A DNA stretch of 64,000 bases. Origin: a virus. Lineage: Duplodnaviria > Caudoviricetes. Both the position numbers and the translations under genes were made by a program. Below are positions 2,736 through 35,245 of this stretch, piece by piece; position 1 is the stretch's first letter, and every line of letters starts with the position of its first letter. Under the pieces are notes generated by a model. That model was given only the letters and a program-made list of their open reading frames with translations, ran no database searches and was not told where the DNA came from. The stretch is from positions 1-64,000 of the IMG/VR virus record IMGVR_UViG_3300017911_002158; one strand, 5' to 3'.

Positions 2736-3813
2736 AAACATCTTATATATAGGACCATATAACGAGGAATCAAATAGGGGCAGAGTTTCTTTAATCAATG
2801 TAAAAGCTCTGAATAAAATAGGACACAGGCTTAAGGCTGTACCGATTTATTATCCAGGCGAAAAAAACAAAGAAACTCCCCAGGATCTCTTACCATTAGA
2901 AAATAATAATCTAGAACATTATGATATTTGTATACAGCATTGTGATCCGATGCAGTATTCATTTAATAATAACATAGATAAAAATATTGGTATATACACA
3001 CCAAATAGCGTCACTTCTGAGCCAATTATTAATACCAGAATGGCATTGCTAGATAATATTATTGTTTATTCAAAAAAAATATATACTCAACTTCCACGGA
3101 TATTGTCGCAACATATTCTTAATAAACTTAGATATTGTCCTAAATATATAGATCTTGATTATATTATCAATTATAAAAAAGAACTACTAGATTGGACAGA
3201 CAGCCAAAGATACTACTTTTATTCTGAATTAGAATTTACTGAAGAGTATGATTGGGAAAAATTGATTTATGTATATCTAACAAGCTTTATGAATAAAAAT
3301 GCTGGGCTGATCATAAAAACAAAAAACATTGCTGATGAAGAACAAGCTAGTTATATTACTAATAAAATTAATAATATAGCTATGTATGCTAATATCAAAC
3401 CAAATAAAGATAATATGCCCAAGATATTAAATGGTGTTTTTGATGAAGACACTCAAATGAGAATCTATAACTCTATCCACTGCTTTATAGACTGCGGAAG
3501 AAATTATGACTATAATAATAATATCCTGGTTGCAGCAGCCCTGCAAAAACGGATAATCTGCAATTCACAATTATCGACATCAGATTTTTTTCCAGAAATG
3601 TATAAAGTAAATGCTATAGCATGTAATGTTAATTATAGTTTTAATAACGATTTATTATCTTCTTCAATGTATGAACAACATTATTCCATGGAATGTAATA
3701 GCCTAAAAGAAACTATGAATTTAGCATATGATAATAGATATTTAAAAGAAAAAATTAGTTATGAACAATTAAAACCATACGATATATCTAATATTAATAA
3801 TTTATTATGCTAG
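2722..3813 (+). CDS. Degenerate glycosyltransferase-like protein (GT-B remnant)
   Basis: NILYIGPY and YDICIQH N-terminus resemble phage GT4 proteins, but there is no intact EX7E motif. Confidence 0.55.
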   Translation: MDKHKNILYIGPYNEESNRGRVSLINVKALNKIGHRLKAVPIYYPGEKNKETPQDLLPLENNNLEHYDICIQHCDPMQYSFNNNIDKNIGIYTPNSVTSEPIINTRMALLDNIIVYSKKIYTQLPRILSQHILNKLRYCPKYIDLDYIINYKKELLDWTDSQRYYFYSELEFTEEYDWEKLIYVYLTSFMNKNAGLIIKTKNIADEEQASYITNKINNIAMYANIKPNKDNMPKILNGVFDEDTQMRIYNSIHCFIDCGRNYDYNNNILVAAALQKRIICNSQLSTSDFFPEMYKVNAIACNVNYSFNNDLLSSSMYEQHYSMECNSLKETMNLAYDNRYLKEKISYEQLKPYDISNINNLLC

Positions 3814-13126: not shown

Positions 13127-16100
13127 TTAATTTATGCATCTGTCTGATGTGATAACCTTATTCTGATATGAATCAAAAATGATATTTACAAAAATATTTG
13201 TATTTTTAGTAATGTTAATGGTCCTTGTTTGTTGATAAAGATATAGGTTCCTTAAATCATTTTCTTCCGGAACAATATTATATACACCAGGAGGCAATTG
13301 GATTAAAACCGAACGATCATGAAACACTTTATTGTAACCATAAGGACCAGTAACTCTAAATCGTATTTTGCCAGGAGTGGTTTGTATAGTTAAGCTGTTA
13401 GTGTACGATGTATTTGGAGATATTTCATATACACTTGTATTAATAATAATATCAGGCTGATTAGGTGTTACATCTGTAGATGGTGGATTTTGTATACCAG
13501 GCATTGCTTCGCCTGGATTTGGTGTTTCAAGTAAATTGACTAGATTCAATAAAATATCTCCATATTCAAAATTCAATATTTCTGCAGTAGTGTCCAATTC
13601 ATTTATAATAAAGTCTAATGCAGATACATAGAAGTAGTCATAGTTTGTATCATTAATTTTTTGTAATTTATTTCCATATACATCTCTTATCTTTACTATA
13701 TAAACTCCGTAAGGAATTTGCGATGCATCAAAAACATCTAAAGCATTATTATTGTAATATAATTCAGTAAGACACTTACTTGTTTGGTCATAAAAATAAT
13801 AAGAAATACTAAATTCTGCATATGCTCCTTGGGGAACTATTGTTATAGATGCACTATGATCGTAATATTCTGTAGCCTTTGAATACATATTTTCTGATAA
13901 GCCAAAACTATTTAAGGCCACAAGAAAATTCTTATTTTGCACAATTTCAACCTGGGAGCTATTGCAGTCAAAGTCTATACTCTCTATGCTGTCTGATCTT
14001 AAATTTTGAGAAGTCTTTGGATTGTTTAAAAAGTCTATTCTATACATAAATCCAGCATTGTATTTACCATATAAGTTTGATGTTTGCATAACACTACTTT
14101 TGACATCCAAGGAAACAAAATCTCCAATATCAAAATCATAATTAAATAACCCTATTGCATAATTATGTTTATATTGTGCTGTATTCAGGTCTGTAGTTAA
14201 TACAGATCCCTTAAGTAATTTAATAGTATTAATATTGTTGTTGATTTCAGTAACAATCTTGATTTTACTTCCATCAGGAAGCAATAAATAAATTGATGAA
14301 TTAAGTATATCTATATTTGTATCTGTTAAATCAAAACCCTGATAAATAGACATGGTATAAAACCAATCAGAATTATTAAGTCCTAAAAATTTAATATTTA
14401 ATATTGAATATGTTTCACAGCTAATTGAAGCATTTAATACTTTTCTATCATAAATGACTCCATTAATTTCTAAATGAATATCGCTTTTTTCTGTAAGATT
14501 TGATATATAAGATAGTAAACTAGTATTATTTACTATCATTTTATATGGAATAAATAAAGTATCTAATATTGGTTGAGATATCGTATAAAAACCCTTGTCT
14601 ACAGGACTATCATGAGATGATGTGACTTGAGCAGACATGGGCTCGATATTTAAAATAGTTTGCTGGGAAGTTATGAAAGAACATCCAGAAGCGTTTACAA
14701 ATTCAAATAGATATTCTCCAGGATGTAATTTATTTTTAAAGTCATAATAGTATATCTGTGGATTTGGATTATTAAGTCTGACCGATTGATTTCCACTTTC
14801 ATCTACAATTATATTATTTAACCTATCTATTCTATTTAAAATAGACGTATCATATTTATCAAAACTATATGCTAAACTACCAATTTCTCCTGTTGTAGTA
14901 TTATATATATTAATTTGATATGGTCCAACTCCATGAGATATATTGAATTGAAAACTTTCTGTGGTATTATCGTATATCAATGGTGGGGTTTGTGATTCAT
15001 ATTCAAAAATAGAAACATCAGGAAAATTAAAAGAAATATCTTCTCCAGAATATACGCATCCAGCACTATCTGTAATAGTGACACTTCCAGTATTGCTTTG
15101 AAAAACATTTAAAATAGTAGAAAATCCAGATCCAGATGGAACAACATTTCTACTCGTTCCATACGATACATTATATGGCGGAACTCCACCAGACCAAGTA
15201 ACTGTTAATGTGCCAGAATTATCGCATTGTTCAATATTTGCAATAGTAGACGTTATTTCTAAATTAGATGTACTGCTAATGGTATACGCTATGCCTGTTA
15301 AAGGAATATATCCTCCATATACATAGCCAGAATAATTGCCTGCTGGTAAACTATTAACAACTAGGCCACGAAATCCAGTAATTGCACTATCAGGTAAATT
15401 GTTCCATATAATAGATAAAGGAGAAAGCAAATTGCATTCTGTAATATCTTCATCGCTTCCAGTGTAATTAATATCTATAAATATTCTGCCATTAGTATTT
15501 CCTGGACATGTAACGGTATCAATATCAGCATCAATCACAATATCGCATTGAGCAACATCTCCTAATGTTACAATAAAATTACCACTTCCGCGTAAACCAC
15601 TACTATCAACACCTACAACAATTCCAGTGTAAGTGCTTTTGGTATCAAAGTCTAAAGCTATCCCACTATTAAAATATAAATCTCCCACATTAACAGAGGA
15701 TGATGCTTCTGAAGGTACGCTATTAATATCTAATGTAAAATATTCACTATCCGAGCCAGTTAAATGGTATGCTACAGACGATATCTCTTCATCATAAGCA
15801 TAAACATCTGTAATCTTAAATGATCCAGCATTAGTATTGGTGGTTTCTGGTATTGTTAATCCCGTTGGGCTAAATGTTATAATGGGAGCTTCGTTAACAT
15901 CTCTAACGATAACAATAAGATATCCTCCATATAGATCCGTAGTACTTGTGGTTGGTCTACCAGAAACATATATATCATATCGATTTTGTGTTTCATAATC
16001 TAATTGAGAAAATTGTCGTAAATGTATCTCTGGTGTCAGAGTAGAATTGTCAACAATTGTAAATAGATCTAATGCAGAACGGAAGTCGCCTCCTGTATAT

Positions 16101-19100
16101 CTTACATCAAAAACCGCCATAGGATCTTCAACATTGACGCTCCAGCTTAAATCTGCAAGTTTGATGGAGGATGTGTCGGTGTCTATATCTTCATCAATAT
16201 AGACTATACTGGGCGAAACCCTTATTCCTGTTGGCTCATAAATATCAAGAACATTAATAATAAATATACCAGTGGCAGAATAAACATCTGTAGTATTTCC
16301 AGCACCAATAAGCCCTGTGATAGTTTGTTGTGTTTCATAATCAAATGCCTTGCCAGGAGCTAGTGTTAAAACTCCGCTATTGGTAGCTAGATCATAATCT
16401 ATACTAAAATAATTAGCATCTGCTCCAATCAATTTAACAAAATTTCCTATATTTGTATCATTATCAATTAAAATAAAGTCTGCTAATTTTAATCCTGTGG
16501 AAGGAATTATATAGTCTTCATATATTCCCGTAATGCTTGGAGATACAATAACAGAAACAGGAGGATCATCTGTAAGATATAAACTCCAATCTGTAGATGC
16601 AGTAAAGGTTTCTCCGCTTTTTGAAGCTAATAAAGTTATATCATATTGTTGTTTATTCTCAAAATCAAAAACAGTGCCAGCTTTAACATACAAAATGCCC
16701 TGCTGAGTGTTATTATCAAAAGTGGTAGTGAAAACATGTTGATCTGGACCAGCGATAGTAATAATATTATTATTAGTCAATTCTGTATCTACATCTGTAA
16801 CACTAAAAGTTGCTACTTGTATTCTTGAAGTGGTTGGAGTATTAACATTAATTGTGCCACTATTAATTGGAGATATACTAATATTTGTTGGTTTTTCATC
16901 AATATCTATTACTGTTAATATAAAAGTATCAATAAATGGAGTGCCGCCAACATATGGATCAACACCTGTTATATATCCAGTATATAAAGATTTGGTTTCA
17001 TAATCTATCGCAATGCCTTCTTTAACATATATGGTGCCACTGCTTCCTGATATACTAATGTCAAAAATGCTTCCATCGCCTAAAGATGGATCAAATCCCA
17101 TCTGGGTACTACCAGCAAATTCATCGTCTGCTAATGAAAATGTCCCAATCTCTACTAATCCTGTTGTAACTTGAATTGGCTCAAATTCAATAACTGTTTC
17201 ATTTATAGACAAATCGCCACTTATAGTAATCCCTGTAGCAGAAACGGTTGTTGTTGATAAAGCCATTAAATGGCCACTAGGAATACCAGTTTCATAAGTT
17301 AAGCTTGGCATTAAGTAAAAATTATGAGATTGGTCAATATTATCACCGAGACGATCAAGAACAATAATGTCATGATATGAACCCATAGGTAATGAAGTAT
17401 CAAAAGAATATTCTTCATAGGTTCTATCTAAATCATTAAAAGCATATGCTTTATTATTGTTTTTATCTAGTAATAATGTTCTATATTCATTTGGACAACT
17501 TGCTACTATAGATATTTGTCCAGATAACGGGAAAAGAGTAGATTCAGGTGTTTCAAAATATGGATCGTATACTCTTTGATATCCAGTTATATCATTTGAA
17601 CACCATAATATTTGATCATTAATCAGTCTACTAAGTCTGCGATATTCAACATTCGTCGCTGTCTGTTTAATGCCAAGTTCACTTGTGTGATTGTCGTATG
17701 CATATAAATAACTATTATTGGTTCCAGTATTTACTAGAGATATAGCAACAATCTCTCCAACAGTTACAATATCTGTTCTATAATTTAAATAACTATCTAA
17801 ATGTAGACCAGAAGTTCCAGACAGTACAAACTCCCCACTTACAATTTGATTATTATTAATATCTAGTAATAATGGATAATTCCCTGTATTTGTCTCATCA
17901 TAATTATGATCAATGGCAAAAATATGATATGTTCCAGTACATACAGAAATATCAGAATAACTACTAGCTATATAGTTATAAACAGAATTTCCCCAACAGC
18001 TATAATTAACAAATTTAGGTATAATAGCTATATTTTCTGGTAATTCTGCAGAAACATTTGAACTTATAGATGTTTCTGTTAAAGTATTTAAGTTATATTT
18101 TATATACTCTCCGCTACCAATTATGAGATAGTCTTGATTTGATTCGTCAAGCCTAATGATTCTACGAATATTAGGATTAGAACCCGTAAAAGGAACACCA
18201 GTATAAATAAATTCGCTTGATGAAGTATCATATACAAAAAATGAATCAGGGGCAGAACTGTATCTAGATAAAATATATCTAGGACTATCATTTGTTTTCC
18301 ATCCAACTACCTCTGAAAGTCCTGTTTGTACTGGATGTTTAATACCACTTAAATTTTCTTGCCCATATGTATATAAATAATAATAGTCATCATTTGATGA
18401 CAATGGGGTGCCACTAATTTGAGGAGCTATAATGAATTTATAAGCTCCAAATGGTTCAAAATATGATGATTCAACATTTCCAATGCCACCACTAAAAGGA
18501 ATATATGGACCAATACCAGTTGCAAAAGTATCTAGTGGCTCCCCTACAAATGCTTCAACATACATGTTCGTCGATTCTATACCACAACACACTCTGTTTG
18601 TAACATTAATTGGGTTATACCAAATATTTGAAAATCCGCTAATTGAACTATTGCTAGTTATTGCAAGTGAAGTATCGATTTCTATTCGTAAATAATATTC
18701 ATTACTAAAATCTATTGATAAATCATCATCGCTGGAAGACCAGGAATTAGCATAAAGAATATGGCAATTCTCATTACATCCTTCGTTATAATCGATTGCA
18801 GCAGCTGGTCTCAAGTGTCCAAGTGTTATCCTGGATGATGTATTAAGATTAGATGGAATGTTGCTAATATTATTTATAACATAAAGAGATGCGAGCCCTG
18901 GTTGACCTATGCGGATATCAATTTGTCCAGTACCAATATTACTACCATCGTTAGCGACTAGATAAGAACGAACATGATTAACATTTCCTACTCCATTAGA
19001 GTTAAACGTAACAGATACATTGCCATTTCCTAAAACGGTAGTAGGAGATATGGTATATTTTGAAGCAAAATCACCCTGAATACTAAGATTCATAGTCCTG

Positions 19101-19609
19101 TATTCGTCTGTTATATCGTCATCTGAAACAGATACATAAAATGTCGTTGAAGACCCTGAGCACAAAGTATCTAGATATTTATTTTCAACTACAGGCACTT
19201 CATCATTTATGTCATATAGCACAAAATCGGTCGTTCCTTCACAATCAGGACCAATTGTTGCTGTTACACGCCAGACTGTAGAATATTGATCGATACCATG
19301 AATTTCATAGTCTAAGTTTGCTCCTATAGGAATATAAAATTGATAATAACCATTACCAATATTTCTTACGCTTATAAATGGAGGCAAACCATTAACTAAA
19401 AAACTACCGCTTCCACTAGCATATGCTGTTCCTAGTATTCTCTCACTAGTTGTAATCCCTTGTTCAGCTATAGTGTCTCCACCTGGTATTTCTATAGTAC
19501 AATATGCACCATTTGATAATATTTCAAAATCAAAATCTTTTTCATCCTGATTATCAGAATTTAAAATTTTATTATATAGTTCTTTATTTTTATTGTTGTC
19601 TATTGACAT
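13127..19609 (-). CDS. Cadherin-repeat and SprB-like-repeat virion adhesin (2160 aa)
   Basis: Repeated LDYE/IDYET/FDFEN/FDYET/LDYET/LDFDT and DINDE/DIDEKP/DVNEAP calcium-site motifs; SGGVPPY, ITDSAGC and VNASGC SprB-like motifs. Confidence 0.75.
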   Translation of the reverse strand: MSIDNNKNKELYNKILNSDNQDEKDFDFEILSNGAYCTIEIPGGDTIAEQGITTSERILGTAYASGSGSFLVNGLPPFISVRNIGNGYYQFYIPIGANLDYEIHGIDQYSTVWRVTATIGPDCEGTTDFVLYDINDEVPVVENKYLDTLCSGSSTTFYVSVSDDDITDEYRTMNLSIQGDFASKYTISPTTVLGNGNVSVTFNSNGVGNVNHVRSYLVANDGSNIGTGQIDIRIGQPGLASLYVINNISNIPSNLNTSSRITLGHLRPAAAIDYNEGCNENCHILYANSWSSSDDDLSIDFSNEYYLRIEIDTSLAITSNSSISGFSNIWYNPINVTNRVCCGIESTNMYVEAFVGEPLDTFATGIGPYIPFSGGIGNVESSYFEPFGAYKFIIAPQISGTPLSSNDDYYYLYTYGQENLSGIKHPVQTGLSEVVGWKTNDSPRYILSRYSSAPDSFFVYDTSSSEFIYTGVPFTGSNPNIRRIIRLDESNQDYLIIGSGEYIKYNLNTLTETSISSNVSAELPENIAIIPKFVNYSCWGNSVYNYIASSYSDISVCTGTYHIFAIDHNYDETNTGNYPLLLDINNNQIVSGEFVLSGTSGLHLDSYLNYRTDIVTVGEIVAISLVNTGTNNSYLYAYDNHTSELGIKQTATNVEYRRLSRLINDQILWCSNDITGYQRVYDPYFETPESTLFPLSGQISIVASCPNEYRTLLLDKNNNKAYAFNDLDRTYEEYSFDTSLPMGSYHDIIVLDRLGDNIDQSHNFYLMPSLTYETGIPSGHLMALSTTTVSATGITISGDLSINETVIEFEPIQVTTGLVEIGTFSLADDEFAGSTQMGFDPSLGDGSIFDISISGSSGTIYVKEGIAIDYETKSLYTGYITGVDPYVGGTPFIDTFILTVIDIDEKPTNISISPINSGTINVNTPTTSRIQVATFSVTDVDTELTNNNIITIAGPDQHVFTTTFDNNTQQGILYVKAGTVFDFENKQQYDITLLASKSGETFTASTDWSLYLTDDPPVSVIVSPSITGIYEDYIIPSTGLKLADFILIDNDTNIGNFVKLIGADANYFSIDYDLATNSGVLTLAPGKAFDYETQQTITGLIGAGNTTDVYSATGIFIINVLDIYEPTGIRVSPSIVYIDEDIDTDTSSIKLADLSWSVNVEDPMAVFDVRYTGGDFRSALDLFTIVDNSTLTPEIHLRQFSQLDYETQNRYDIYVSGRPTTSTTDLYGGYLIVIVRDVNEAPIITFSPTGLTIPETTNTNAGSFKITDVYAYDEEISSVAYHLTGSDSEYFTLDINSVPSEASSSVNVGDLYFNSGIALDFDTKSTYTGIVVGVDSSGLRGSGNFIVTLGDVAQCDIVIDADIDTVTCPGNTNGRIFIDINYTGSDEDITECNLLSPLSIIWNNLPDSAITGFRGLVVNSLPAGNYSGYVYGGYIPLTGIAYTISSTSNLEITSTIANIEQCDNSGTLTVTWSGGVPPYNVSYGTSRNVVPSGSGFSTILNVFQSNTGSVTITDSAGCVYSGEDISFNFPDVSIFEYESQTPPLIYDNTTESFQFNISHGVGPYQINIYNTTTGEIGSLAYSFDKYDTSILNRIDRLNNIIVDESGNQSVRLNNPNPQIYYYDFKNKLHPGEYLFEFVNASGCSFITSQQTILNIEPMSAQVTSSHDSPVDKGFYTISQPILDTLFIPYKMIVNNTSLLSYISNLTEKSDIHLEINGVIYDRKVLNASISCETYSILNIKFLGLNNSDWFYTMSIYQGFDLTDTNIDILNSSIYLLLPDGSKIKIVTEINNNINTIKLLKGSVLTTDLNTAQYKHNYAIGLFNYDFDIGDFVSLDVKSSVMQTSNLYGKYNAGFMYRIDFLNNPKTSQNLRSDSIESIDFDCNSSQVEIVQNKNFLVALNSFGLSENMYSKATEYYDHSASITIVPQGAYAEFSISYYFYDQTSKCLTELYYNNNALDVFDASQIPYGVYIVKIRDVYGNKLQKINDTNYDYFYVSALDFIINELDTTAEILNFEYGDILLNLVNLLETPNPGEAMPGIQNPPSTDVTPNQPDIIINTSVYEISPNTSYTNSLTIQTTPGKIRFRVTGPYGYNKVFHDRSVLIQLPPGVYNIVPEENDLRNLYLYQQTRTINITKNTNIFVNIIFDSYQNKVITSDRCIN

Positions 19610-25621: not shown

Positions 25622-28600
25622 CTATGATAATGTTATTGATGACGATAAGGATGTTGTATTAAATCCAGGATTATCCTGGGCAAGTGCTGTTGCCAAACTA
25701 CTAGTAATTAAAGCAGCAAAACCTTGAAGTCTTGCTTCTATAGCTTCTAAGCCTGCAATATTGACAGTCATAGGTTGCACAGCAATAGATCCTTGTACAT
25801 TAATTGTGCCATTAATTTGCATACCTTGAACAGCTGCTATTAATTCATCGGTTTTGGCTGAAAAACTAGTTACTGCATTATTAAACCTGCCAAAAGAACC
25901 TCCAAGCGTTTGGGCTGTAGTTAATAGTTGTTGTGCTCCATCATTAATTACACCAAAATCTAATTGTGATAATGTTAGTACAGCTTGTGTTAGTGGTCCA
26001 GCGAAAGTACCAAAACTTGTTACACCATTAGTAAATGTCGTAAAATCTATCTGTTGCTCAGCTCCTCCTCTTCCGGTTAATGTATTTGCACCAGTTGATA
26101 AAGCTGATGTTAGAGTTTCCATTTGTCCAACTAAGTCATAAATTGAACTATTAAGATTTGATATTCCATCAAAAGAAGTTCCTATTTCTTGCGTAGGAGC
26201 AGTTATTGGTGATGCTATATCCATTGGTGTTGGCATTGTTGAAATATCTGGTATTGCTTCTGGCGTTACTTTAATATCTCCAGTAATTCTTAGTTCTCCA
26301 TTGCCAGCAGCACTAATGCCTATACCTCCATCAGTACCATCTGCTGCGTATGTTATGCCATTTTTAACCATTCCTCCACGACTTCTATTTAAAGCTTTAA
26401 GAAGTCCTTTATTTCTTCTGGTGGCTTCTGGATTCATAACCATTTCACCGCGACTAAGCATAGCGGGATATCTGTCTGTTCCTTCTGCAAGTGCTTGAAA
26501 ATCTCCAGTAGCTAACCCGCCAGAGGAAAAATATCTAAATCTTACAGGACCATTGCCATTTGGTGAAAATATACTGGCATAGTCTTTTTCATTACTTCTA
26601 GGATCTCCATATCCACCAGTAGGACTATTTACTACAGGTCTATTTGCTGCATCTAAACCAAATCCGTATTCTGTCATTTTCCTGCGTATTTCATATTCTC
26701 TACTAGATGGGTCTAATTGACCACTATCAACCATAGACTGAAGCCCTCTTTTACTATCATGATAAAGGTCTTTAATTTTGTCACTAGGGCTAACATATCC
26801 AGCAAATTTATTTCCAGCATAATAATTTTCATAAAGAGGATCGGTATTTATCATATTGGTAGTAAAACCACCACTAGCAAGATACTTAGGTTTAACAACT
26901 CCACCAGAAGACATAAATCTAAGTGCTCTCTTTAGTATTTCGTCTGGAAGAACAAATTCTCTTTCTTGATTCCTTGAATTTTGATAAAACCGAGACTGAC
27001 CTCCCTCTTTACCAACGTTGTATTTTTGTAGTTGCTTGGTAGGAACATCAACGTAATATGTTGGTAACTTTGCAAGTTCTTCTGGACTGTTCATATTAAT
27101 ATAAGAACTTAATTCTCTCGGAGCATCGGTAAACCATCTACCAGCAGCTTCTGGCGGGTTTGTATCGAACATGTCCCCCATGGTCTTGGATTGTTGTATT
27201 TTTTTCTGCCATTCTGCAAATGAAATCTCTTCACCGTATAGACGTGCTGTTTTAGGAGGCTTATAGTCTCTAGCGGTCTCACCAACCCTGTATAATCTTG
27301 TCATTCCTTCTGGTGTTTCTGGTAGTTGCTCTATATTAGACATCATTTTACCAAAATACTTATCTGCAACAGTGGGTGTTGGTGGCCCAAATGTTTTTGG
27401 TGGTCGTGGTGGTGCTGCAGGTGCGGCAGGTGGAGGTGGAAGTTCGATACTGGCCCTTGGTGGTTTGGTTGCGCCAGCATTAATCTGTGGTTTAGGTCTA
27501 GTTGCTGTTGGAATAAAATCTGTTCCAGTACCCCCGAAACCTTGAGGTTGCTGAACCTTAAACGGAGCAGTACCAGGAATAGGTTCTAGTCCAGTTGGCT
27601 TAGCGGCTGCTTTTGAACTTGTTGTGCTAAGTCCTGATTCAGGAATAATGTCGGTAAGCTTAGTGGTCGCAGGCCTTGTTCCAACAGGGATACCCCTACT
27701 AACCGGAGCGGCTCTTGTTGTGAAGTCTAATGGACTAAATCCATATTGTCTGGGGTCTATCTCAATTCTTCTTCCAGAGGGAGCTTTGCCCTGTGGTGAT
27801 GTTGGCCCTATGAATTCGCCTGGGTCTTTAGCTGTGATTTTTGGTTTTGGTGTTGCTTTTGCCGCTCGTGCTGCTGCTGCCTTTTCACTTGTTTTTAAAC
27901 TTTGTAATGCTGCTTTTTGTGCTCGTGGAGACAGATTAGGCCAAACATCTGCTAATCCAGAATTTTGAACAATTTTTGGTATTCCTGCTGTCTGTGGTTT
28001 ATTGGTTGGTGAGGTTTCTGGAGACTTGACCTGTGGCTTAGACCTAGGTACTGCGCCACGACTACCGCTACCTCTAGTGGAAGGGCCAGTAAGATCAGGC
28101 AATGGAAGTCTAGTATCAGTATTTTGTCCTGCAGTCTTTAATGCGTCAAGTAAAAATCCTTCATCTCCAGTCATAAGTGTAGACCTAATAGCATCATCAG
28201 CTATTTCTGGATTAACTCCTTGTCTAACAAGACTTCGAAAAACTTGATTTTGCTGAGCTAGGCGAGTTGCATTATAAGTCTCTCTTTGTGCCGCCCCTTG
28301 AGCAAAGGCTCTGGCAAATTTACCAGGCTTAAAAAGCTGCTTACCTAAAGCTGGATCTAAGAAACCACCAACAAGTGCCATACCAGGACTACGTTGTTTT
28401 ATTTCCTCCTTTTGTTCATATATATCAGGAGCAACTGATTGTAAAACAGCATCTTGGGCCAAGCTAGTAGCATACCCAGCAGCTCCTCCAATACCTAATG
28501 TGGCTAATAATCCTAAAGAACCACCTCCACTAAAAGGAGCAAATCCTACAGCAGCAGCAGCGACAAGGGTTGGCACGACATTTTCTGCGGCCCCAACACC

Positions 28601-31600
28601 CAAAGCGGCAAGGCCATCCAATGATTCCTTACGACCAGAACCTTGTCTTGGAGTAGTAGTTCCTCTGCGACTCTTTATTCTTCCTCGTGTTCTTGGATTT
28701 TGTGCGGCTATGTTTCTTCTAATTTCATCTAGGGCATTTTGGTTTTTTTCTTCTTGTGTGGGCTGTTGAGCGGGGCGCTTTGGTCTTATTATGTATTTTT
28801 CAAATTCTTTTGGATATTTATCTCTTAAAGATTGAATCTCTTCACTGCTATATTCTGTTTGATAAAAACTGGTTGGTAATCCAGCTTCTCTATCTCTAAC
28901 AAACCTTAGAAATTTTTGTTCTGTTTGTGCTTGCGCTTGAAATTTGACTAAATCTTCAATTTTACGTTTACCTTCAATTCTTCTTGCAACATATTCTGGT
29001 CCGTATAACTGTTCTAATTCTGGTATATTTAATTCTGCAATTGGACGAGCAAAAGTTTCTTTAAGTTGTTCTCTTCTTCTATTATAATCATCTTGTGATT
29101 CTCCGTCTATTTTATATGCTTTATATTCTTTTCTAGTTACAGAAAATGGTTGATTATTTTCTTTGATTTCTTGTTCTTGTTTTCTTTGTTTCTGTAGCTG
29201 TATTCTGTTTGATACTTTTTCTCTTAGTTGTTCTTCTTTTCTATTTTCTTCCTGTTGTTTTATGTCTCTTTCTTTAGATTTTTCTAGTCTAGCTTTTTCT
29301 AATTTTTCTTCTTCTTTTTTTCTTTGCGCTAATCTAATCTCTTTTCGTGTAGTTAATTCTCTATCTATTCTTTCTTTTCTAGACCTTTCAATTTTGCTAT
29401 CTTTAAATTTTTGAAATTCTAGATTATACCCAGCACTACCAATAGGATATTTTTTAGCTGCTTGAGTTTTATAGAAATCTGAATATAATTGTGTTTCTGG
29501 ATCTGGTACTCTAACAGGACCAGCAGGAACAGCTACTCTTCCATCTTCTGTAATGCTTCTCTCTCTTGATTTTTGTCGCTCTAGATTGCGTTCTCTTATT
29601 TTTCTATTTCTCTCTTCAGTGTTTTGGAAAAGATTTCTTTCTCCAGTTTTAGGATCTATGCCATATTTTCTAGCTAGAATATAAATTCTTCTAGGATCAT
29701 TAGTTGATTGAATAAGTTCTTTTTCTTCTGAGTCTGGTAAATCTTTTAGTAATTTTTGTTTGATGCTTTCAGGACTTTGAACGCCGATTTGTTTATAATA
29801 ATCCTTACGATAAGCTGCTTGTTTGTCCTTTATTTGTTGACCATACATCAACAAATAAGCTTGTTTTTTACGTTCAAAATCGATTCTTTGTCTAATTTGT
29901 TTTTTAACTTGTATAGGTAATACCTTTTGAACACCCATACCATATCGTTGTTTATACCAAGCATAAATTGATTTTGGGTCTATATGACCTCCTTCTGGAG
30001 CATATGCAACTCCATTATCAAATGAAGGTGTTCCTCCGTTATTAATTTGTTCTAATAAACCCCTATTCTTTTTAGTTGCTTTAGCATTAACAACAAATTC
30101 ACCCCTGGTTAACATCGCAGGGATAGTATCTGTTCCTTTGGGTTTCATCTCTACATACTTACCCTCTGATGCATATACTATGCCGCCAGACTGCCTATTA
30201 ACAACCCCTCCAGCCCCTCCAGGCTGCCTATTAACAACCCCTCCAGGCTGATTAATTGGTCGTTGTCTTGGGGGTGGTTGCACTGGAGGCTGATTAGGTA
30301 ATCCTGGTATATTATTGATAGCATTTGTAAGATTAACTATACTATTATTAAGTGTCTGATTTGCTTGAACTAAAAACGTTGTGGGCTGAATAAGTTTGCC
30401 TAAAGCGGTATTTGCCTCTTCTTGTATATTAATAGCTCTGTTATAAACATTAATAGCTCGTTTTGTTTCATTATCTTGACCTCTCATTTCAGCAAAAGCT
30501 TGCTCAAACATTGGACCCCAGGTCATGTCGCCCATTAATCCGGTTTGTTCCAAGAAACTTCTAAGTACTGTTTCATATCTTTCATTAAATGCCTTGTTGT
30601 TATCTCCAAAAAAAGCTTTAAGTTCTTTTAGCAAGCTTAAAACATTACCTTTTTGATCTGCTAACGCTCCTGTTCCAGCTCTTGCGATATCAAGGGCATC
30701 TCCTCCTTGCATCGCAGCTTGGAACATAGCCTGTTGTGCAGCAACACTATTTTGTAGTGTGAGCTGTCCTCCAGATATGATATTCTCTAAATCAGCATAA
30801 GTTTGTCTAATTTGTCCAAATTCTTCTGGTGTTGATGTTGCTAGCTTTTCGCCAAAACTTAATTTTTCTTGCGCTCTTGCTTGTATTTCAGAAATTCTAT
30901 TAAGAGCTGCATTAGCTATTTCTGTACTGTTTGCCAATGCCTCAAGTCCTGCTCTATTTTGAGCTAGTTGTAAATCTAGCTCTGCTAATGATTGAGTAAG
31001 TCTCTTAAATTCTTCATTTCTAGAAACATCTCCACTAATAGCATCTCTTCTTGCTACAATTTGTTCTCTTTGTTTAAGTCCTCTTTGTAAATTCTGGAAT
31101 AGTTGTTGAACATCTGTAACTCCACCAGTTTGTTGCGCAACACCAGCTAGAGTGTTACGAATAATATCATTCAGCCCTATTGTTTCTCCACGAGCTTCTC
31201 TAAGTCTTAATGATCCTTCTCTTCTTATATCAGCAGCCCTATTGAAATATTCTCTTTGTTGTAATACTGCTTCTGTTATTTCTTGGATTGCTTGTGAATA
31301 TCCTTTTTGAGCACTAGAAAAAGTATTAGATGCCTGTATCATTACTTCCAAAGCACCTTTGAACTGTGGAAGTTCTGAAACTATTTCTTGTACTCTTTCT
31401 CTTATTTTTGTATCCGGTGCACCTTCACCTAATTCTCCTTGCGCTTTTGTAAATGCTGCACTAAGTTGTTGATCTATGGCCCGTTCAACATCCGCCCCAA
31501 GATTCATGCCGCTAAACATGTTTCTTATTCCAACCCCAATCGCCTTTAATGCTACTCCTCCTTTCTTACCGCTAGATAGTATGCGGTCAGTAACGGCTGC

Positions 31601-34600
31601 CGCATCATCCTCTATTCTGGTACTGGCTAATGCAAGTTGTCCTATTCTATTTCCCTTATCTCCTAATAATGGTGCTACTTTATTAATAGTACTTTCAACT
31701 GTTGCATCTGAAAATGCTTTTGGGTTTTCTAACACATTTTTCATAACAGTATTATCATAACCAATTCTTGTTTTACCAAGAGAAGCAGATAGTGCGTCAC
31801 TAGCTCTTGCAAATCTAGATTCAGTATTACTAGCAACAACTTTGAATGCCTGCTCCATGCTATTAAACAGTTTACTAAACATTACTTGTAACATGTCTGA
31901 TTCAGTTTTGGCCTGTCTGGCATTTCTATCGGCAACAGCACCAGAAAGCCTAACAGTAAGTTCTCTTCGAACCTCTTTATTGATTATGGCTTTTCCAGCA
32001 TCGCTATCCTGACCCCCAGCTTCTCTAACTCTTCTGGCTACTTCTGGATCGTCTAAAGCTATAGAGGCTCTTTCTGCTTCGCCTAGATTTTTAAATATCT
32101 GATCTATGCTTGCTCCTTTACTAATATCAATCTCTGCTTTTCTTAATACTATATCAGAGAACTGTTTATATGAGTCTGCTGTTTTTTCATAAAGTGTGGC
32201 AATTTCCTCTTCAACTTTTTTATTAAATCCAGTTGGATCAAAAGCAGCACTAAAGAGACCAGTAAAACCCTCTCTACTTCTAACTCTATCTACTGCAAAT
32301 TGCCTTTCTCTTTGAGATCTATCTAGAGCATCTTTTGCTCCTTGACTTAAATTAGCAGACTCTTTAAATCCTGAGAAAATACTAGCTAATAAATCAGTAG
32401 TACCAAATAAACTGTTCATAATTTTTTGAGCATCGTCAAAACCCTGTGGTAAAGAATATGTTCTTTGTTCTTGTAAGTCTTCTCGTCTTTGTATTGAGCT
32501 AACACCAGTTTCTACTGATCTTTTAAAGGCATCCGAAGCTGCTTTGTTTACAGCTTTAGAATAACTCTCTAATGCTTCACTAGAAGAGTCCAAAGATTTT
32601 TCAAGTTGCTTACTAGTGCTTTCTAATTCAACGTCTTTAAGGCTATTCCCCCATGCTCTAAGAACAGCGTCTGCTAAGCTAAATCCAGCAACAACAATAC
32701 CTAAATTACGAGCAAATTTTTGACTTACTCCAGGAATCTGCCTTAAACTCTCAAAAGTAGCTATTCCAGTAGCCGCACCGCTAGCAAGTCCTTGCAAAGC
32801 AGTATTCGTTGCCTTTGTGGTTGCAGTAGTATCTCCTATTGCTGATTCAAATGCAGTAACAGCTGCCTGGGCTGCTAATAATGCACCAATAGTGCCAGTT
32901 CCAGCACTTTTTACTGGTTCAGCTATTCTTAATCCTTGCCTTCTCCATTGACGATCTGATGGATAGCCACCCCCTCGCAAACGAACAGGACCAACAGCGC
33001 CACCCTTATTAAATCCTATCTTATCTGCCTTGTTTAGTCTGTCTAATGTTTGTTCTCCGAGAGACCTAGCGGCCTTTTCATTAATTACATATTCACCAGG
33101 AGTAAGTAATGCATCTACGGTGTCTCTACCACTAATAGGACCACCAGTATTTGCTCTTTTTGTTGGTTTAAAAGTTTCTCTAAAGTCAAATCCTCTTTTC
33201 TTAGCTCCTCTCAACGCACTCTTCGGAGCAATCTTTTTAGATCTTCCTTCAGCTTGTAACTCTTGTTTTTTCTTTTCGTCAAGCTTTCCTGTATTATATG
33301 CAACAAAAATTTGACCAGCATTAATATTTTTATCAATACCCATAGTATTAGATAATACATTTTGCTTTTTTCCTAGTTTATATCTTATAAGTTTGTCCAA
33401 TAATTCTGGGCCAGGAGTAAATTCTGTTCTATTTCTTACTTCTATTGGACCATATCCAGGCGCAACGACATCAACAGGAGCATTACCTCCTATCCATTGT
33501 CCTCCTAATGTAGCAGCAACTCTTTTTTCAAATTCTGTATTGCCAATTTTTGGAGATGCATCAATAGGTATTGATCTGATATTAAAATTAATTTCGTCTA
33601 AATCATTAATTCTTTCTCCATCACGATATTGTTGTGAGGTTCCTGTTCTAGTAATTCTATTTCTAAGTGATACGCTACTAAGTTGTTCTGCTCGTACCGG
33701 ACCTCCACTATTATATTCAGGAAGTTTGCCAGTACGATTAACTCTTTCTAAGGTATCTCTGCCAATAGCTTTTACAGCAGCTTTTCTAATGACATATTCG
33801 CCTGGGGTTAATGCTGCTTCGACAGTATCATTGTTTCCAACACCAGGAACAAAACCACCAGTATTAAACCCTAAACCTTTCTTAAATCCTCTAGCAATAG
33901 AAGGAACACCACCAAGAACTTTAGCGGCACCAAGAGCAGCTAATGCTGGGATAATTGGCTTTACGGCATCAGCCACCTTAATCAATGCACTAGCAAGATC
34001 AAGACTTAATTGAATAAATTGTCTAAATTCTGATGTTTCGCCAATGCTTCTGATAAGAGCATCAAATTCTTGTTGTACTTTAGATATTTTAACAGCCAGG
34101 GTATCTTGTCCAAGAGCAGCATCTCTAGCTAAAGAACCAGAACCCTGTTGTGCTACATTTAATGCTTGTTGGGCAGTGGTGAACTGCTGAATTAATGGGA
34201 TAACCTTGCCAACCTGACGGAAACCGCCGAGTTCTTCTACAATACCACTAAACTGTAATGATCTTGGGTCAAGACTACGTAAGCCCTTACTTAATTGTTC
34301 AATTGCTTTGTATGGGCCAATAAATTTACCTTCTAGATCAGTGAGAGTAACACCAAAAGCCTCTAATGCTGCGATAGTGTCTTCTCTTTGTAAACGAGTA
34401 AAAATAGTTCTTAAACCAGTAGCAATAGTTTCTGCACCTTCACGAGTCGTAGCTCGAACACTAGTAAATACGGCCAAAAATTCATTAAGAGCATTTGTAC
34501 CTTCGCTCACCCCCTGACTAGCGGCGGCAAACACACCACCAGCACGCTGAACAGCAGTAATAAGATCACCAGCTTCTACTGCAAAACTGCCAGCAACAGC

Positions 34601-35245
34601 ATTAATACTACCAAGAGCAGATTCTAGTTGGTTTGTACTAATGCTAAACTGTTTCATTAAGGCAATGCTACCTTCAACAGTTTGATTAATATCATTAAAA
34701 GTAGGGGCTAAAGTAGTCAGAGATAAAGCTCTCAATGCTTTTTCTGTTTCTCTAGCACTAAGACCAGCTTGACTAAGAGTAACAGCAACTTCAGCTAAAG
34801 AAGAGCTACTTGCGCCAAGAGATGTAGAAAGATTAGTAATCTCAGCAGACAATGCAGATAAAGACGACTTACTTGTATTTGTCACCTGAGCAATTCTAGT
34901 TAATTGTTTATCATATTCAATAAATTTCTCTAATGATTGTTGCGTTGCTCTAGTAATAGCATAAAACCCAACAGTGGCGGCAGTAAATGCCCCGAATCGT
35001 TTAACGGCTAAACCTGCAGATTTGCCAAATTTTTCCATAGCATTTGCAGCATCATCAGCACTAGCTTTTACTTGTTTAGATTGCTGACTAATACCTTGTA
35101 ATGCTCTAGCTGTCTGAGGAGATACCTTAACATTAACATTGGCCTGAATATTGCTGAGTTGTTTTTGTATGTTATTTACAACATTATTAAGATTTTTTGG
35201 ACCTTGAAGATTTATCTGTACAGTTAAATTATAAGGTTTTGCCAT
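25622..35245 (-). CDS. Tape measure protein (3207 aa) with inserted cargo domains
   Basis: TP901-type N-terminal core (LSQAGLSA, AVFTSVRATTREGAETIATGLRTIFTRL, GGFRQVGKVIPLI); four DTxxAxLxxGExV-type motifs; follows the tail tube and chaperone genes. Confidence 0.92.
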   Translation of the reverse strand: MAKPYNLTVQINLQGPKNLNNVVNNIQKQLSNIQANVNVKVSPQTARALQGISQQSKQVKASADDAANAMEKFGKSAGLAVKRFGAFTAATVGFYAITRATQQSLEKFIEYDKQLTRIAQVTNTSKSSLSALSAEITNLSTSLGASSSSLAEVAVTLSQAGLSARETEKALRALSLTTLAPTFNDINQTVEGSIALMKQFSISTNQLESALGSINAVAGSFAVEAGDLITAVQRAGGVFAAASQGVSEGTNALNEFLAVFTSVRATTREGAETIATGLRTIFTRLQREDTIAALEAFGVTLTDLEGKFIGPYKAIEQLSKGLRSLDPRSLQFSGIVEELGGFRQVGKVIPLIQQFTTAQQALNVAQQGSGSLARDAALGQDTLAVKISKVQQEFDALIRSIGETSEFRQFIQLSLDLASALIKVADAVKPIIPALAALGAAKVLGGVPSIARGFKKGLGFNTGGFVPGVGNNDTVEAALTPGEYVIRKAAVKAIGRDTLERVNRTGKLPEYNSGGPVRAEQLSSVSLRNRITRTGTSQQYRDGERINDLDEINFNIRSIPIDASPKIGNTEFEKRVAATLGGQWIGGNAPVDVVAPGYGPIEVRNRTEFTPGPELLDKLIRYKLGKKQNVLSNTMGIDKNINAGQIFVAYNTGKLDEKKKQELQAEGRSKKIAPKSALRGAKKRGFDFRETFKPTKRANTGGPISGRDTVDALLTPGEYVINEKAARSLGEQTLDRLNKADKIGFNKGGAVGPVRLRGGGYPSDRQWRRQGLRIAEPVKSAGTGTIGALLAAQAAVTAFESAIGDTTATTKATNTALQGLASGAATGIATFESLRQIPGVSQKFARNLGIVVAGFSLADAVLRAWGNSLKDVELESTSKQLEKSLDSSSEALESYSKAVNKAASDAFKRSVETGVSSIQRREDLQEQRTYSLPQGFDDAQKIMNSLFGTTDLLASIFSGFKESANLSQGAKDALDRSQRERQFAVDRVRSREGFTGLFSAAFDPTGFNKKVEEEIATLYEKTADSYKQFSDIVLRKAEIDISKGASIDQIFKNLGEAERASIALDDPEVARRVREAGGQDSDAGKAIINKEVRRELTVRLSGAVADRNARQAKTESDMLQVMFSKLFNSMEQAFKVVASNTESRFARASDALSASLGKTRIGYDNTVMKNVLENPKAFSDATVESTINKVAPLLGDKGNRIGQLALASTRIEDDAAAVTDRILSSGKKGGVALKAIGVGIRNMFSGMNLGADVERAIDQQLSAAFTKAQGELGEGAPDTKIRERVQEIVSELPQFKGALEVMIQASNTFSSAQKGYSQAIQEITEAVLQQREYFNRAADIRREGSLRLREARGETIGLNDIIRNTLAGVAQQTGGVTDVQQLFQNLQRGLKQREQIVARRDAISGDVSRNEEFKRLTQSLAELDLQLAQNRAGLEALANSTEIANAALNRISEIQARAQEKLSFGEKLATSTPEEFGQIRQTYADLENIISGGQLTLQNSVAAQQAMFQAAMQGGDALDIARAGTGALADQKGNVLSLLKELKAFFGDNNKAFNERYETVLRSFLEQTGLMGDMTWGPMFEQAFAEMRGQDNETKRAINVYNRAINIQEEANTALGKLIQPTTFLVQANQTLNNSIVNLTNAINNIPGLPNQPPVQPPPRQRPINQPGGVVNRQPGGAGGVVNRQSGGIVYASEGKYVEMKPKGTDTIPAMLTRGEFVVNAKATKKNRGLLEQINNGGTPSFDNGVAYAPEGGHIDPKSIYAWYKQRYGMGVQKVLPIQVKKQIRQRIDFERKKQAYLLMYGQQIKDKQAAYRKDYYKQIGVQSPESIKQKLLKDLPDSEEKELIQSTNDPRRIYILARKYGIDPKTGERNLFQNTEERNRKIRERNLERQKSRERSITEDGRVAVPAGPVRVPDPETQLYSDFYKTQAAKKYPIGSAGYNLEFQKFKDSKIERSRKERIDRELTTRKEIRLAQRKKEEEKLEKARLEKSKERDIKQQEENRKEEQLREKVSNRIQLQKQRKQEQEIKENNQPFSVTRKEYKAYKIDGESQDDYNRRREQLKETFARPIAELNIPELEQLYGPEYVARRIEGKRKIEDLVKFQAQAQTEQKFLRFVRDREAGLPTSFYQTEYSSEEIQSLRDKYPKEFEKYIIRPKRPAQQPTQEEKNQNALDEIRRNIAAQNPRTRGRIKSRRGTTTPRQGSGRKESLDGLAALGVGAAENVVPTLVAAAAVGFAPFSGGGSLGLLATLGIGGAAGYATSLAQDAVLQSVAPDIYEQKEEIKQRSPGMALVGGFLDPALGKQLFKPGKFARAFAQGAAQRETYNATRLAQQNQVFRSLVRQGVNPEIADDAIRSTLMTGDEGFLLDALKTAGQNTDTRLPLPDLTGPSTRGSGSRGAVPRSKPQVKSPETSPTNKPQTAGIPKIVQNSGLADVWPNLSPRAQKAALQSLKTSEKAAAARAAKATPKPKITAKDPGEFIGPTSPQGKAPSGRRIEIDPRQYGFSPLDFTTRAAPVSRGIPVGTRPATTKLTDIIPESGLSTTSSKAAAKPTGLEPIPGTAPFKVQQPQGFGGTGTDFIPTATRPKPQINAGATKPPRASIELPPPPAAPAAPPRPPKTFGPPTPTVADKYFGKMMSNIEQLPETPEGMTRLYRVGETARDYKPPKTARLYGEEISFAEWQKKIQQSKTMGDMFDTNPPEAAGRWFTDAPRELSSYINMNSPEELAKLPTYYVDVPTKQLQKYNVGKEGGQSRFYQNSRNQEREFVLPDEILKRALRFMSSGGVVKPKYLASGGFTTNMINTDPLYENYYAGNKFAGYVSPSDKIKDLYHDSKRGLQSMVDSGQLDPSSREYEIRRKMTEYGFGLDAANRPVVNSPTGGYGDPRSNEKDYASIFSPNGNGPVRFRYFSSGGLATGDFQALAEGTDRYPAMLSRGEMVMNPEATRRNKGLLKALNRSRGGMVKNGITYAADGTDGGIGISAAGNGELRITGDIKVTPEAIPDISTMPTPMDIASPITAPTQEIGTSFDGISNLNSSIYDLVGQMETLTSALSTGANTLTGRGGAEQQIDFTTFTNGVTSFGTFAGPLTQAVLTLSQLDFGVINDGAQQLLTTAQTLGGSFGRFNNAVTSFSAKTDELIAAVQGMQINGTINVQGSIAVQPMTVNIAGLEAIEARLQGFAALITSSLATALAQDNPGFNTTSLSSSITLS
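30191..30246. repeat. 23-bp direct repeat (CTGCCTATTAACAACCCCTCCAG x2) inside the TMP
   Basis: Copies at 30191-30213 and 30224-30246; encodes GGVVNRQ twice. Confidence 0.9.

Follow-up and report, generated by a model that had tools for sequence, protein, structure and literature searches.

Tape measure proteins (TMPs) are usually regarded as rulers that bear a wall-degrading motif at most; peptidoglycan-hydrolase motifs are embedded in the TMPs of TM4 and other mycobacteriophages. To our knowledge, the Thermus phage P23-45 is the sole case in which delivery of a cytoplasmic enzyme by a TMP has been shown experimentally. In this phage (and also in P74-26, G20c, and TSP4), the TMP gp96 has a length of 5,002 aa and contains a fused virion RNA polymerase that transcribes the pre-early genes in the cell, while its relatives G18 and phiFa lack the polymerase (PMC10770324). 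Here, a giant TMP gene was analyzed that is located on the minus strand of a 64,000-nucleotide stretch of phage DNA (positions 1 to 64,000 of the IMG/VR virus record IMGVR_UViG_3300017911_002158; hereinafter, the window). According to the reading that we favor, with a probability of about 60%, the encoded protein consists of a conserved backbone, four joint modules, and exchangeable cassettes, two of which have enzyme folds, and it enters the host pre-made.

Virion-carried effector domains have been described in other phage proteins. The polyvalent proteins of phages and conjugative elements carry shuffled ADP-ribosyltransferase (ART), nuclease, and other effector domains in the virion (Iyer et al. 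2017, PMC5512222); this paper contains no mention of tape measure proteins. In addition, fusions of MuF with VIP2 ART domains are known (PMC7302621), and the Alt protein of phage T4 is a virion-delivered ART.

The TMP from the window shares with gp96 of P23-45 its giant size, the in-frame position of a domain with a predicted enzyme fold, and the optional nature of the cargo among relatives; transmembrane segments are present in gp96 as well. In contrast to the window TMP, gp96 has as its cargo a two-barrel RNA polymerase at the N-terminus, the activity of which has been demonstrated, and contains a metallopeptidase domain as well. The window TMP carries predicted nuclease and ART folds, contains no peptidase motif, and has its cassettes bracketed by a repeated module. 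The known motifs embedded in mycobacteriophage TMPs differ from it in acting on the cell wall. With polyvalent proteins, T4 Alt, and MuF-VIP2 fusions, the window TMP has in common domains of the effector type that would be delivered together with the DNA. However, those proteins are packaged in the head, linked to MuF, portal, or head modules, and often possess a zincin-like peptidase, whereas here the carrier is a TMP encoded in the tail block, with no HExxH motif and no match to a peptidase family in Pfam. No ART or PD-(D/E)xK fold in a TMP was described in the titles and abstracts of the literature searched. At the level of predicted folds, the window TMP extends the cargo of TMPs by an ART fold of the toxin type and by a nuclease fold.

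Judging by profile matches and by the N-termini of its relatives, the gene product is a tape measure protein, as had been proposed in the first-pass annotation made from the nucleotide sequence alone. It matches the Pfam family PhageMin_Tail (PF10145) with 79.3 bits at a cut-off of 33.2 and several PHROG tape-measure families (phrog_28 with E = 2e-31), and related TMP N-termini were found at 15 IMG/VR loci. According to the gene order, it is the largest gene of the tail block; its product contains hydrophobic segments and a long core poor in proline. Pfam analysis of the individual segments of the protein found nothing beyond PhageMin_Tail. The non-helical inserts that had been noticed previously (a nuclease-like domain, a membrane hairpin followed by a proline-rich linker and an ART-like domain, and a further module of unclear nature) were all found, the last of them corresponding to segment I in Table 1.

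Table 1. Features of the tape measure protein and its gene in the window.
Feature	TMP residues	Window coordinates	Strand	Description
TMP gene		25622..35245	−	Single uninterrupted open reading frame, 3,207 aa
N-terminal region	1-445	33911..35245	−	PhageMin_Tail at aa 134-328; 47-78% identity in relatives
Module M1	446-521	33683..33910	−	FNTGG edge, DTVEAALTPGEYV core, YNSGG edge; regular expression and profile
Insert B	522-678	33212..33682	−	Predicted PD-(D/E)xK nuclease fold; E573, D592, E602-V-R604, D617-K618
Module M2	679-755	32981..33211	−	ANTGG edge, DTVDALLTPGEYV core, FNKGG edge; regular expression and profile
Hydrophobic segments and core	756-1640	30326..32980	−	Hydrophobic segments at aa 785-867, then long low-proline core taken as helical ruler; collinear in relatives
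Tandem 33-nt (11-codon) duplication		30182..30244	−	GGVVNRQ[PS]GG at the N-edge of M3; 94% identity between copies
Module M3	1677-1749	29999..30217	−	RQSGG edge, DTIPAMLTRGEFV core; regular expression and profile
Segment D	1750-2200	28646..29998	−	40% K/R/E/D; partly conserved in relatives
Hydrophobic hairpin	2211-2242	28520..28615	−	Kyte-Doolittle scan
Pro/Ser/Thr-rich linker	2401-2618	27392..28045	−	17% proline; ends in PPPPAAPAAPPRPP leader (27398-27439)
Cassette H	2619-2778	26912..27391	−	Predicted divergent ADP-ribosyltransferase fold; R2650/R2653, T2706, S2757, E2763
Orphan module N-edge	2777-2793	26867..26917	−	FMSSGG-VVKPK-YLASGG; 81% identity over 47 nt to the last-module N-edge of the closest relative
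Segment I	2794-2897	26555..26866	−	Insert between YLASGG and YFSSGG; common to two relatives, absent from others
Module M4	2898-2968	26342..26554	−	YFSSGG edge, DRYPAMLSRGEMV core, RSRGG edge; regular expression and profile
C-terminal region J	2969-3207	25625..26341	−	Conserved; aa 3066-3206 59% identical to relative G001

A search with the regular expression D...A.L[TS].GE.V gave exactly four matches in the TMP, at aa 473, 708, 1706, and 2924 (window positions 33791-33829, 33086-33124, 30092-30130, and 26438-26476), in agreement with the four copies of a D-x-x-x-A-x-L-[TS]-x-G-E-x-V unit that the first reading of the sequence had pointed out in these places. Against a profile built from such units, the four copies score with E values from 1e-19 to 1e-26 and hence are not due to chance. 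Each match is the core of a module of approximately 70 aa, which begins with an aromatic-x-x-GG edge, continues with a beta-hairpin core (consensus D-T-[VI]-P-A-[ML]-L-T-P-G-E-F-V) and two short helices, and ends with a second GG edge; the later copies carry an additional hairpin, GG-[IV]-[IV]-Y-A-x-x-G. The alignment of 32 modules from the window TMP and related TMPs contains nine invariant columns (G, D, A, L, E, V, L, N, G), and the edge glycines belong to its invariant or near-invariant columns. The AlphaFold2 (AF2) model of the module shows the hairpin and the two helices with a predicted local distance difference test score (pLDDT) of 60-70, and the prediction of a complex of three module copies reached a score of 0.29 against a mark of 0.42. 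Pfam analysis of the 32 copies revealed no family match, and no paper naming the module was found in the literature search.

The module edges also account for most of the short motifs ending in GG that had been listed in the first-pass annotation. All of these motifs are present, including FNTGG (33854-33868), YNSGG (33701-33715), ANTGG (33140-33154), FNKGG (32999-33013), FMSSGG (26900-26917), and YFSSGG (26516-26533). At least eight of the eleven are N- or C-edges of the four modules, and two more, FMSSGG and YLASGG, form an N-edge of a module without its core (Table 1). The aromatic-x-x-GG edges are conserved; it is the position of these motifs that matters and not the number of GG dipeptides, which is only mildly elevated (34 observed, 24.8 expected, Poisson p ~0.05). 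As a separate observation, the tandem duplication situated directly upstream of M3 (GGVVNRQPGG/GGVVNRQSGG) looks like a recent slippage event at a module edge.

Comparison with related TMPs indicates that the sequences between the modules are exchanged at the modules. The full open reading frames of the relatives encode 2,361-6,899 aa and contain from three to seven modules each; some of them are located in complete genomes of 190-230 kb. The nine closer relatives keep the four-module plan, with an interval between M3 and the last module that varies from 582 to 1,863 aa. In three relatives, the homology to the window TMP stops at aa 1744-1745, i.e., at the end of M3; it restarts at aa 2899-2906, the beginning of M4, in three relatives and at aa 2769-2779, near FMSSGG, in two. 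In a comparison of 17 TMPs, 48% of the endpoints of long high-scoring segment pairs lie within 15 aa of a module as compared with 13% for random positions (maximum 19% in 1,000 trials), a figure that is inflated because such endpoints trivially stop at conserved islands.

The exchange is seen most clearly at the nucleotide level in the closest relative (locus L030). The identity of the two genes is 80% from the first nucleotide to aa 755, exactly the end of M2, and further downstream M3 and M4 stand out as isolated islands with 82% and 88% nucleotide identity. Two flanks of 47 nt are also retained, namely, the PPPPAAPAAPPRPP leader (87% identity) and the FMSSGG-VVKPK-YLASGG edge (81%). Between these flanks, the window TMP holds cassette H, and L030 has an unrelated cassette of ~170 aa that is common to two other relatives. 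The edge of L030 reads KPKY-FSSGG-LASGDF without interruption, while in the window TMP segment I is located between YLASGG and YFSSGG, which marks this segment as an insertion flanked by a duplicated Y-x-x-S-G-G. In total, the relatives show at least five different cassettes in the slot that precedes the last module, one of which (in P0026) has an HExxH motif, and every cassette of the window TMP ends in aromatic-x-S/T-G-G. Cassette H was found neither in the TMPs of the nine close relatives nor in the whole records of five relatives. The earlier suggestion that the GG motifs delimit exchangeable modules was supported by the clustering of breakpoints at the modules, the replacement of H between the short flanks, and the insertion of segment I; as the alignment of homologous TMPs proposed for its verification showed, the inserts vary among relatives and are exchanged at GG-edged modules. 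From these sequence comparisons, the conserved modules appear to act at least as recombination joints.

As for cassette H, the stretch showing the ART-like fold was taken together with its proline-rich leader (aa ~2590-2780). An exhaustive phmmer search among 1.84 billion representatives revealed ~15 small homologues (124-217 aa, 37-51% identity), and the stand-alone ones align nearly end to end with this stretch, including the leader. All homologues with usable genomic context belong to phage contigs. Two longer matches are fragments of TMPs in which H abuts a module. Taken together, these alignments suggest that cassette H is a whole small phage gene with its proline-rich leader, fused in frame. 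Stand-alone genes of this family (150-220 aa with a proline-rich leader) are located in the phage contigs L024:8001-8570 and L028:8001-8654, either closing a series of small genes of the early type or directly before an HNH gene and larger genes. Another, distant homologue (P0020, 1,597 aa, unclassified) is encoded beside a gene assigned to the Pfam family ART-PolyVal (L027:5192-6043). By hhalign, no sequence relation of the H family to this adjacent protein was detected (probability 0.1).

The alignment of the H family contains invariant G-R-W, Y, D-x-P, S, and E-F positions and near-invariant R-x-x-R and T-D. In the 15 members, the Arg and Thr residues are conserved to at least 90% and E2763 without exception; most of them have E, D, or Q as the first residue of the x-x-E motif. 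The layout agrees with the R-S-E pattern: R2653 is located in strand 1 (LYRVG), T2706 in strand 2 (RWFTD), and E2761-R-E2763 where the EFV strand begins, before strand 5. This assignment was made from the sequence and the strand order of the model, with no residue-level superposition. The AF2 model of H has a pLDDT of 85. Scores in the structural searches were low (best VIA-align Z 4.4, Foldseek E > 0.1), and about 40 of the 50 VIA-align rows listed, as well as most of the named Foldseek rows, belong to the ART superfamily. The PDB matches include IcmQ, RES toxins, TreX/TreTu, PltA, ParT, the pertussis, LT, cholera, and diphtheria toxins, DarT, Scabin, pierisin, many PARPs, and a chain of the cyanophage A4 pre-ejectosome. 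The shape search in the ESM Atlas pointed to RES and DUF3990, the BFVD search to phage ARTs and a protein with a PARP catalytic domain, and the language-model feature search gave Tox-ART-HYD1 as the top match. No match was found in the PDB sequence search with the H-family profile. With good confidence, cassette H can be considered a divergent domain of the ART superfamily, and its family would then make up a new set of small ART-like proteins from phages. In the phage record, H occurs once, no macro domain was detected, and no convincing direct DNA repeats flank the cassette; among the repeats, the 33-nt tandem duplication at the edge of M3 was the only conspicuous one.

Insert B, located between M1 and M2, is modeled by AF2 with a core pLDDT of ~85 and an alpha-beta-beta-beta-alpha-beta order of elements, in which the helix bears a Glu, strand 2 an Asp, and strand 3 the E-x-R motif. 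In the VIA-align comparison with 48,161 chains, the best Z score was 5.2 (FAN1), Hjc reached 4.2, and the rows with Z of at least 2 are nearly all PD-(D/E)xK proteins (FAN1/VRR-nuc, Hjc, NucS, FokI, MspJI, Cas4, Can1/2, CdiA-CT, Vsr), with related splicing endonucleases also among the matches. Foldseek gave noise except for VRR_NUC at rank 2 (E = 0.6), and the lead from the language-model search agrees weakly with a nuclease fold. According to a regional search, the insert is kept in nine closer relatives with 48-67% identity. F572-E573, V591-D592-V593, E602-V-R604-N-R, and D617-K618 are invariant in these nine sequences and the window TMP. The third of these motifs is E-x-K in two further relatives (G001 and L016), so that Arg604 replaces Lys in the lineage of the window. 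These data are consistent with a PD-(D/E)xK nuclease fold; the fold is accepted here, and because of the Lys-to-Arg change the domain may or may not be catalytic. Thus, both enzyme-like domains suspected at first reading were recovered at the fold level, H by its conserved R/T/E residues and the consistent ART-superfamily lists and B by its model, its structural matches, and the conserved E/D/E-x-R/K residues; modeling of the segments between GG motifs, which had been suggested as a check, yielded predicted enzyme folds for both.

The same features of insert B invite a structural explanation, in which the nuclease fold, located in the quarter of the TMP nearest to the head, holds on to the leading DNA end in the tail, the ART fold is a catalytically dead spacer or an interaction domain, and the modules serve in assembly by contacting the tube, a chaperone, or the hub. 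The Lys-to-Arg change in B would fit such a role, as would the contact of TMPs with the DNA end in the tail reported in the Douge paper. Insert B, kept across the close lineage, behaves like a structural part: its stand-alone homologues are limited to two fragments on contigs shorter than 2 kb, so there is no evidence that it is mobile. Moreover, pseudo-ART domains exist, and TASOR and IcmQ are in the match list of H. However, H is optional, being absent from all the close relatives and the five whole records, and it is a member of a family of phage proteins that stand alone. In the 15 members of this family, the R, T, and E positions are kept, which fits an enzyme better than a spacer. This explanation is considered unlikely.

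The repeated module is not special to cargo-carrying TMPs, as might have been supposed from the first-pass annotation; judging by profile and tblastn searches, it is a widespread general element of TMPs. The profile of 32 modules matched gpH of phage lambda among the PDB sequences (aa 732-785, E = 0.002) and, twice, the TMP of mycobacteriophage Douge (gp16, aa 963-1028 and 1411-1464). In two tblastn searches, the module was located in annotated TMPs of 45 and 73 phage records; the hosts are unrelated and include Gordonia, Salmonella, Corynebacterium, Burkholderia, Brevundimonas, Nodularia, Streptomyces, Acinetobacter, and others. The alignments suggest that strong purifying selection acts on the module core in phages distant from one another. 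A possible resemblance of the core to the Ser motif of LexA and signal peptidases was dropped; the lambda copy is without the D-T residues. The window TMP resembles gpH in that a hydrophobic, Gly-rich stretch (aa 410-451 according to the Kyte-Doolittle scan) lies just ahead of a joint module, M1 in this case, and resembles Douge gp16 in the presence of internal module copies, two in the latter. Unlike the window TMP, gpH contains a single module, located near its C-terminus, and lacks enzyme inserts.

In phage lambda, gpH is cut in a glycine-rich region into gpH* and gpHC; the site and the protease have not been identified, T5 and lambda being the only phages studied in this respect (PMC12617516). 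The lambda module falls within gpHC, just downstream of the cleaved glycine-rich region. Residues ~690-817 of gpH are not resolved in the cryogenic electron microscopy maps (PDB 8IYK; PMC12617516), and in the Douge TMP only the last 42 residues are resolved (PDB 8ZDO). In both phages, the TMP's C-terminus sits in the hub (PDB 8ZDO; PMC12617516); by analogy, region J of the window TMP presumably docks in the tail tip.

The location of the lambda module brings up the possibility that the window TMP is a polyprotein, the GG-edged modules being proteolytic sites at which cutting, during maturation or after ejection, frees the nuclease-like and ART-like domains. Besides the lambda parallel, the aromatic-x-S/T-G-G end of every cassette in the window TMP accords with this view, and HExxH motifs of the zincin type occur next to modules in two relatives, P0026 (aa 3363, ~95 aa upstream of the last module) and G002 (locus L018; aa 4106 and 4569). 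By their motifs, these could be candidate in-cis peptidases. On the other hand, the window TMP contains neither HExxH nor a recognizable protease, and none was recognized in the neighboring genes searched; gp96 of P23-45 was shown to function in its TMP-fused form, with no release by cleavage described in the paper (PMC10770324); and a folded unit of 70 aa is conserved more strongly than a cleavage signal requires. The polyprotein is thus doubtful, and the analogy with lambda would make cleavage at the joints testable, not likely. A broader version, according to which the module is a universal processing and release element that marks the gpH cut, and giant TMPs are true polyproteins freeing their cassettes before phage genes are expressed, seems improbable. 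If true, it would provide a sequence determinant for gpH cleavage and a system of effector delivery through the tail lumen with plug-in cargo. Since the module adjoins the unexplained cleavage region of gpH, a concrete experiment in lambda is possible.

It is very improbable that the modules and inserts are by-products of duplications and fusions that lengthen the ruler and the tail, their content being irrelevant: the variation in TMP length among relatives (2,361-6,899 aa), the fresh 33-nt duplication at the edge of M3, and the low-complexity, charged, or proline-rich character of much of the variable sequence speak for this, but the two inserts are modeled with confidence as globular domains of the alpha/beta type that contain conserved residues of the catalytic type, such domains do not extend a ruler as helices do, and the module core is apparently under purifying selection.

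In our preferred reading, that of a modular TMP with exchangeable cassettes, enzymes probably enter the host ready-made by way of the tail. The TMP would fill the tail lumen and be expelled ahead of the DNA; given that such ejection and channel formation are established TMP biology, and considering gp96 of P23-45, we infer that the cassettes may reach the envelope or the cytoplasm of the host in the form of pre-made proteins. The ART cassette, which is C-proximal, would exit the tail early. The hydrophobic hairpin and the proline-rich linker upstream of it could place the ART domain across the inner membrane, on the cytoplasmic side, where it might, in the manner of T4 Alt, modify a target of the host. 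The nuclease-fold domain, which is N-proximal, would be the last to exit, beside the DNA end, and may equally hold this end. The modules may also serve as docking or processing points, as in lambda gpH. With cassettes exchanged at a conserved joint, the tail lumen looks like a general and evolvable route for pre-made takeover or anti-defense proteins.

Several points weigh against this reading. The structural matches are weak (Z of at most 5.2 for B and 4.4 for H, Foldseek E > 0.1), so the fold calls draw on the consistency of the match lists and on motifs, with no single strong match, and neither domain has a match in Pfam, PHROG, or the PDB sequences. The Arg at the canonical Lys site suggests that insert B may be inactive or bind DNA only. 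As mentioned above, the breakpoint figure is inflated, and no HExxH motif or Pfam peptidase match is present in the window TMP. Finally, the PHROG search of the neighboring genes was mostly empty and the Pfam analysis of ten of them revealed no family, so that they give no indication of the tail type or the host.

The window TMP looks like one instance of an apparently recurrent architecture in large uncultured phages. Extreme TMP lengths among the relatives are 6,899 aa (a 192-kb record), 5,078 aa (a 230-kb genome with terminal repeats), 4,356, 4,352, and 3,956 aa; the corresponding loci (L019 and L020, G003:C1:64577-85277; L018 in G002; L021, L022, and L017) contain from four to seven joint modules each. 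Pfam analysis of the TMPs of the relatives G001, G003, and G004 found no domain beyond PhageMin_Tail. As for the remaining parts of the window TMP, segment D (~450 aa) contains long E/K/R runs and may be a single-alpha-helix spacer or bind nucleic acid.

The source of the window is a 96-kb virus record with an estimated completeness of 68%, which represents a large, uncultured, long-tailed phage. A megablast search of the TMP gene against 50,697 phage records gave no match, i.e., no cultured phage is close to it at the DNA level. The guanine-plus-cytosine content rises to 0.44-0.51 over the Pro/Gly/Ala-rich part of the TMP, with 0.51 attained at window positions 27400-27700, as compared with ~0.35 for the window. 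This rise was discarded as a sign of transfer of the cassette, since the amino acid content probably accounts for it. A gene for a protein similar to major head proteins is located upstream of the TMP gene on the same strand. Downstream, the tail region encodes a 2,160-aa protein (window 13127-19609), whose counterpart in the closest relative (L030:26217-30005) shows a match to Laminin_G_3 and a faint one to Cadherin.

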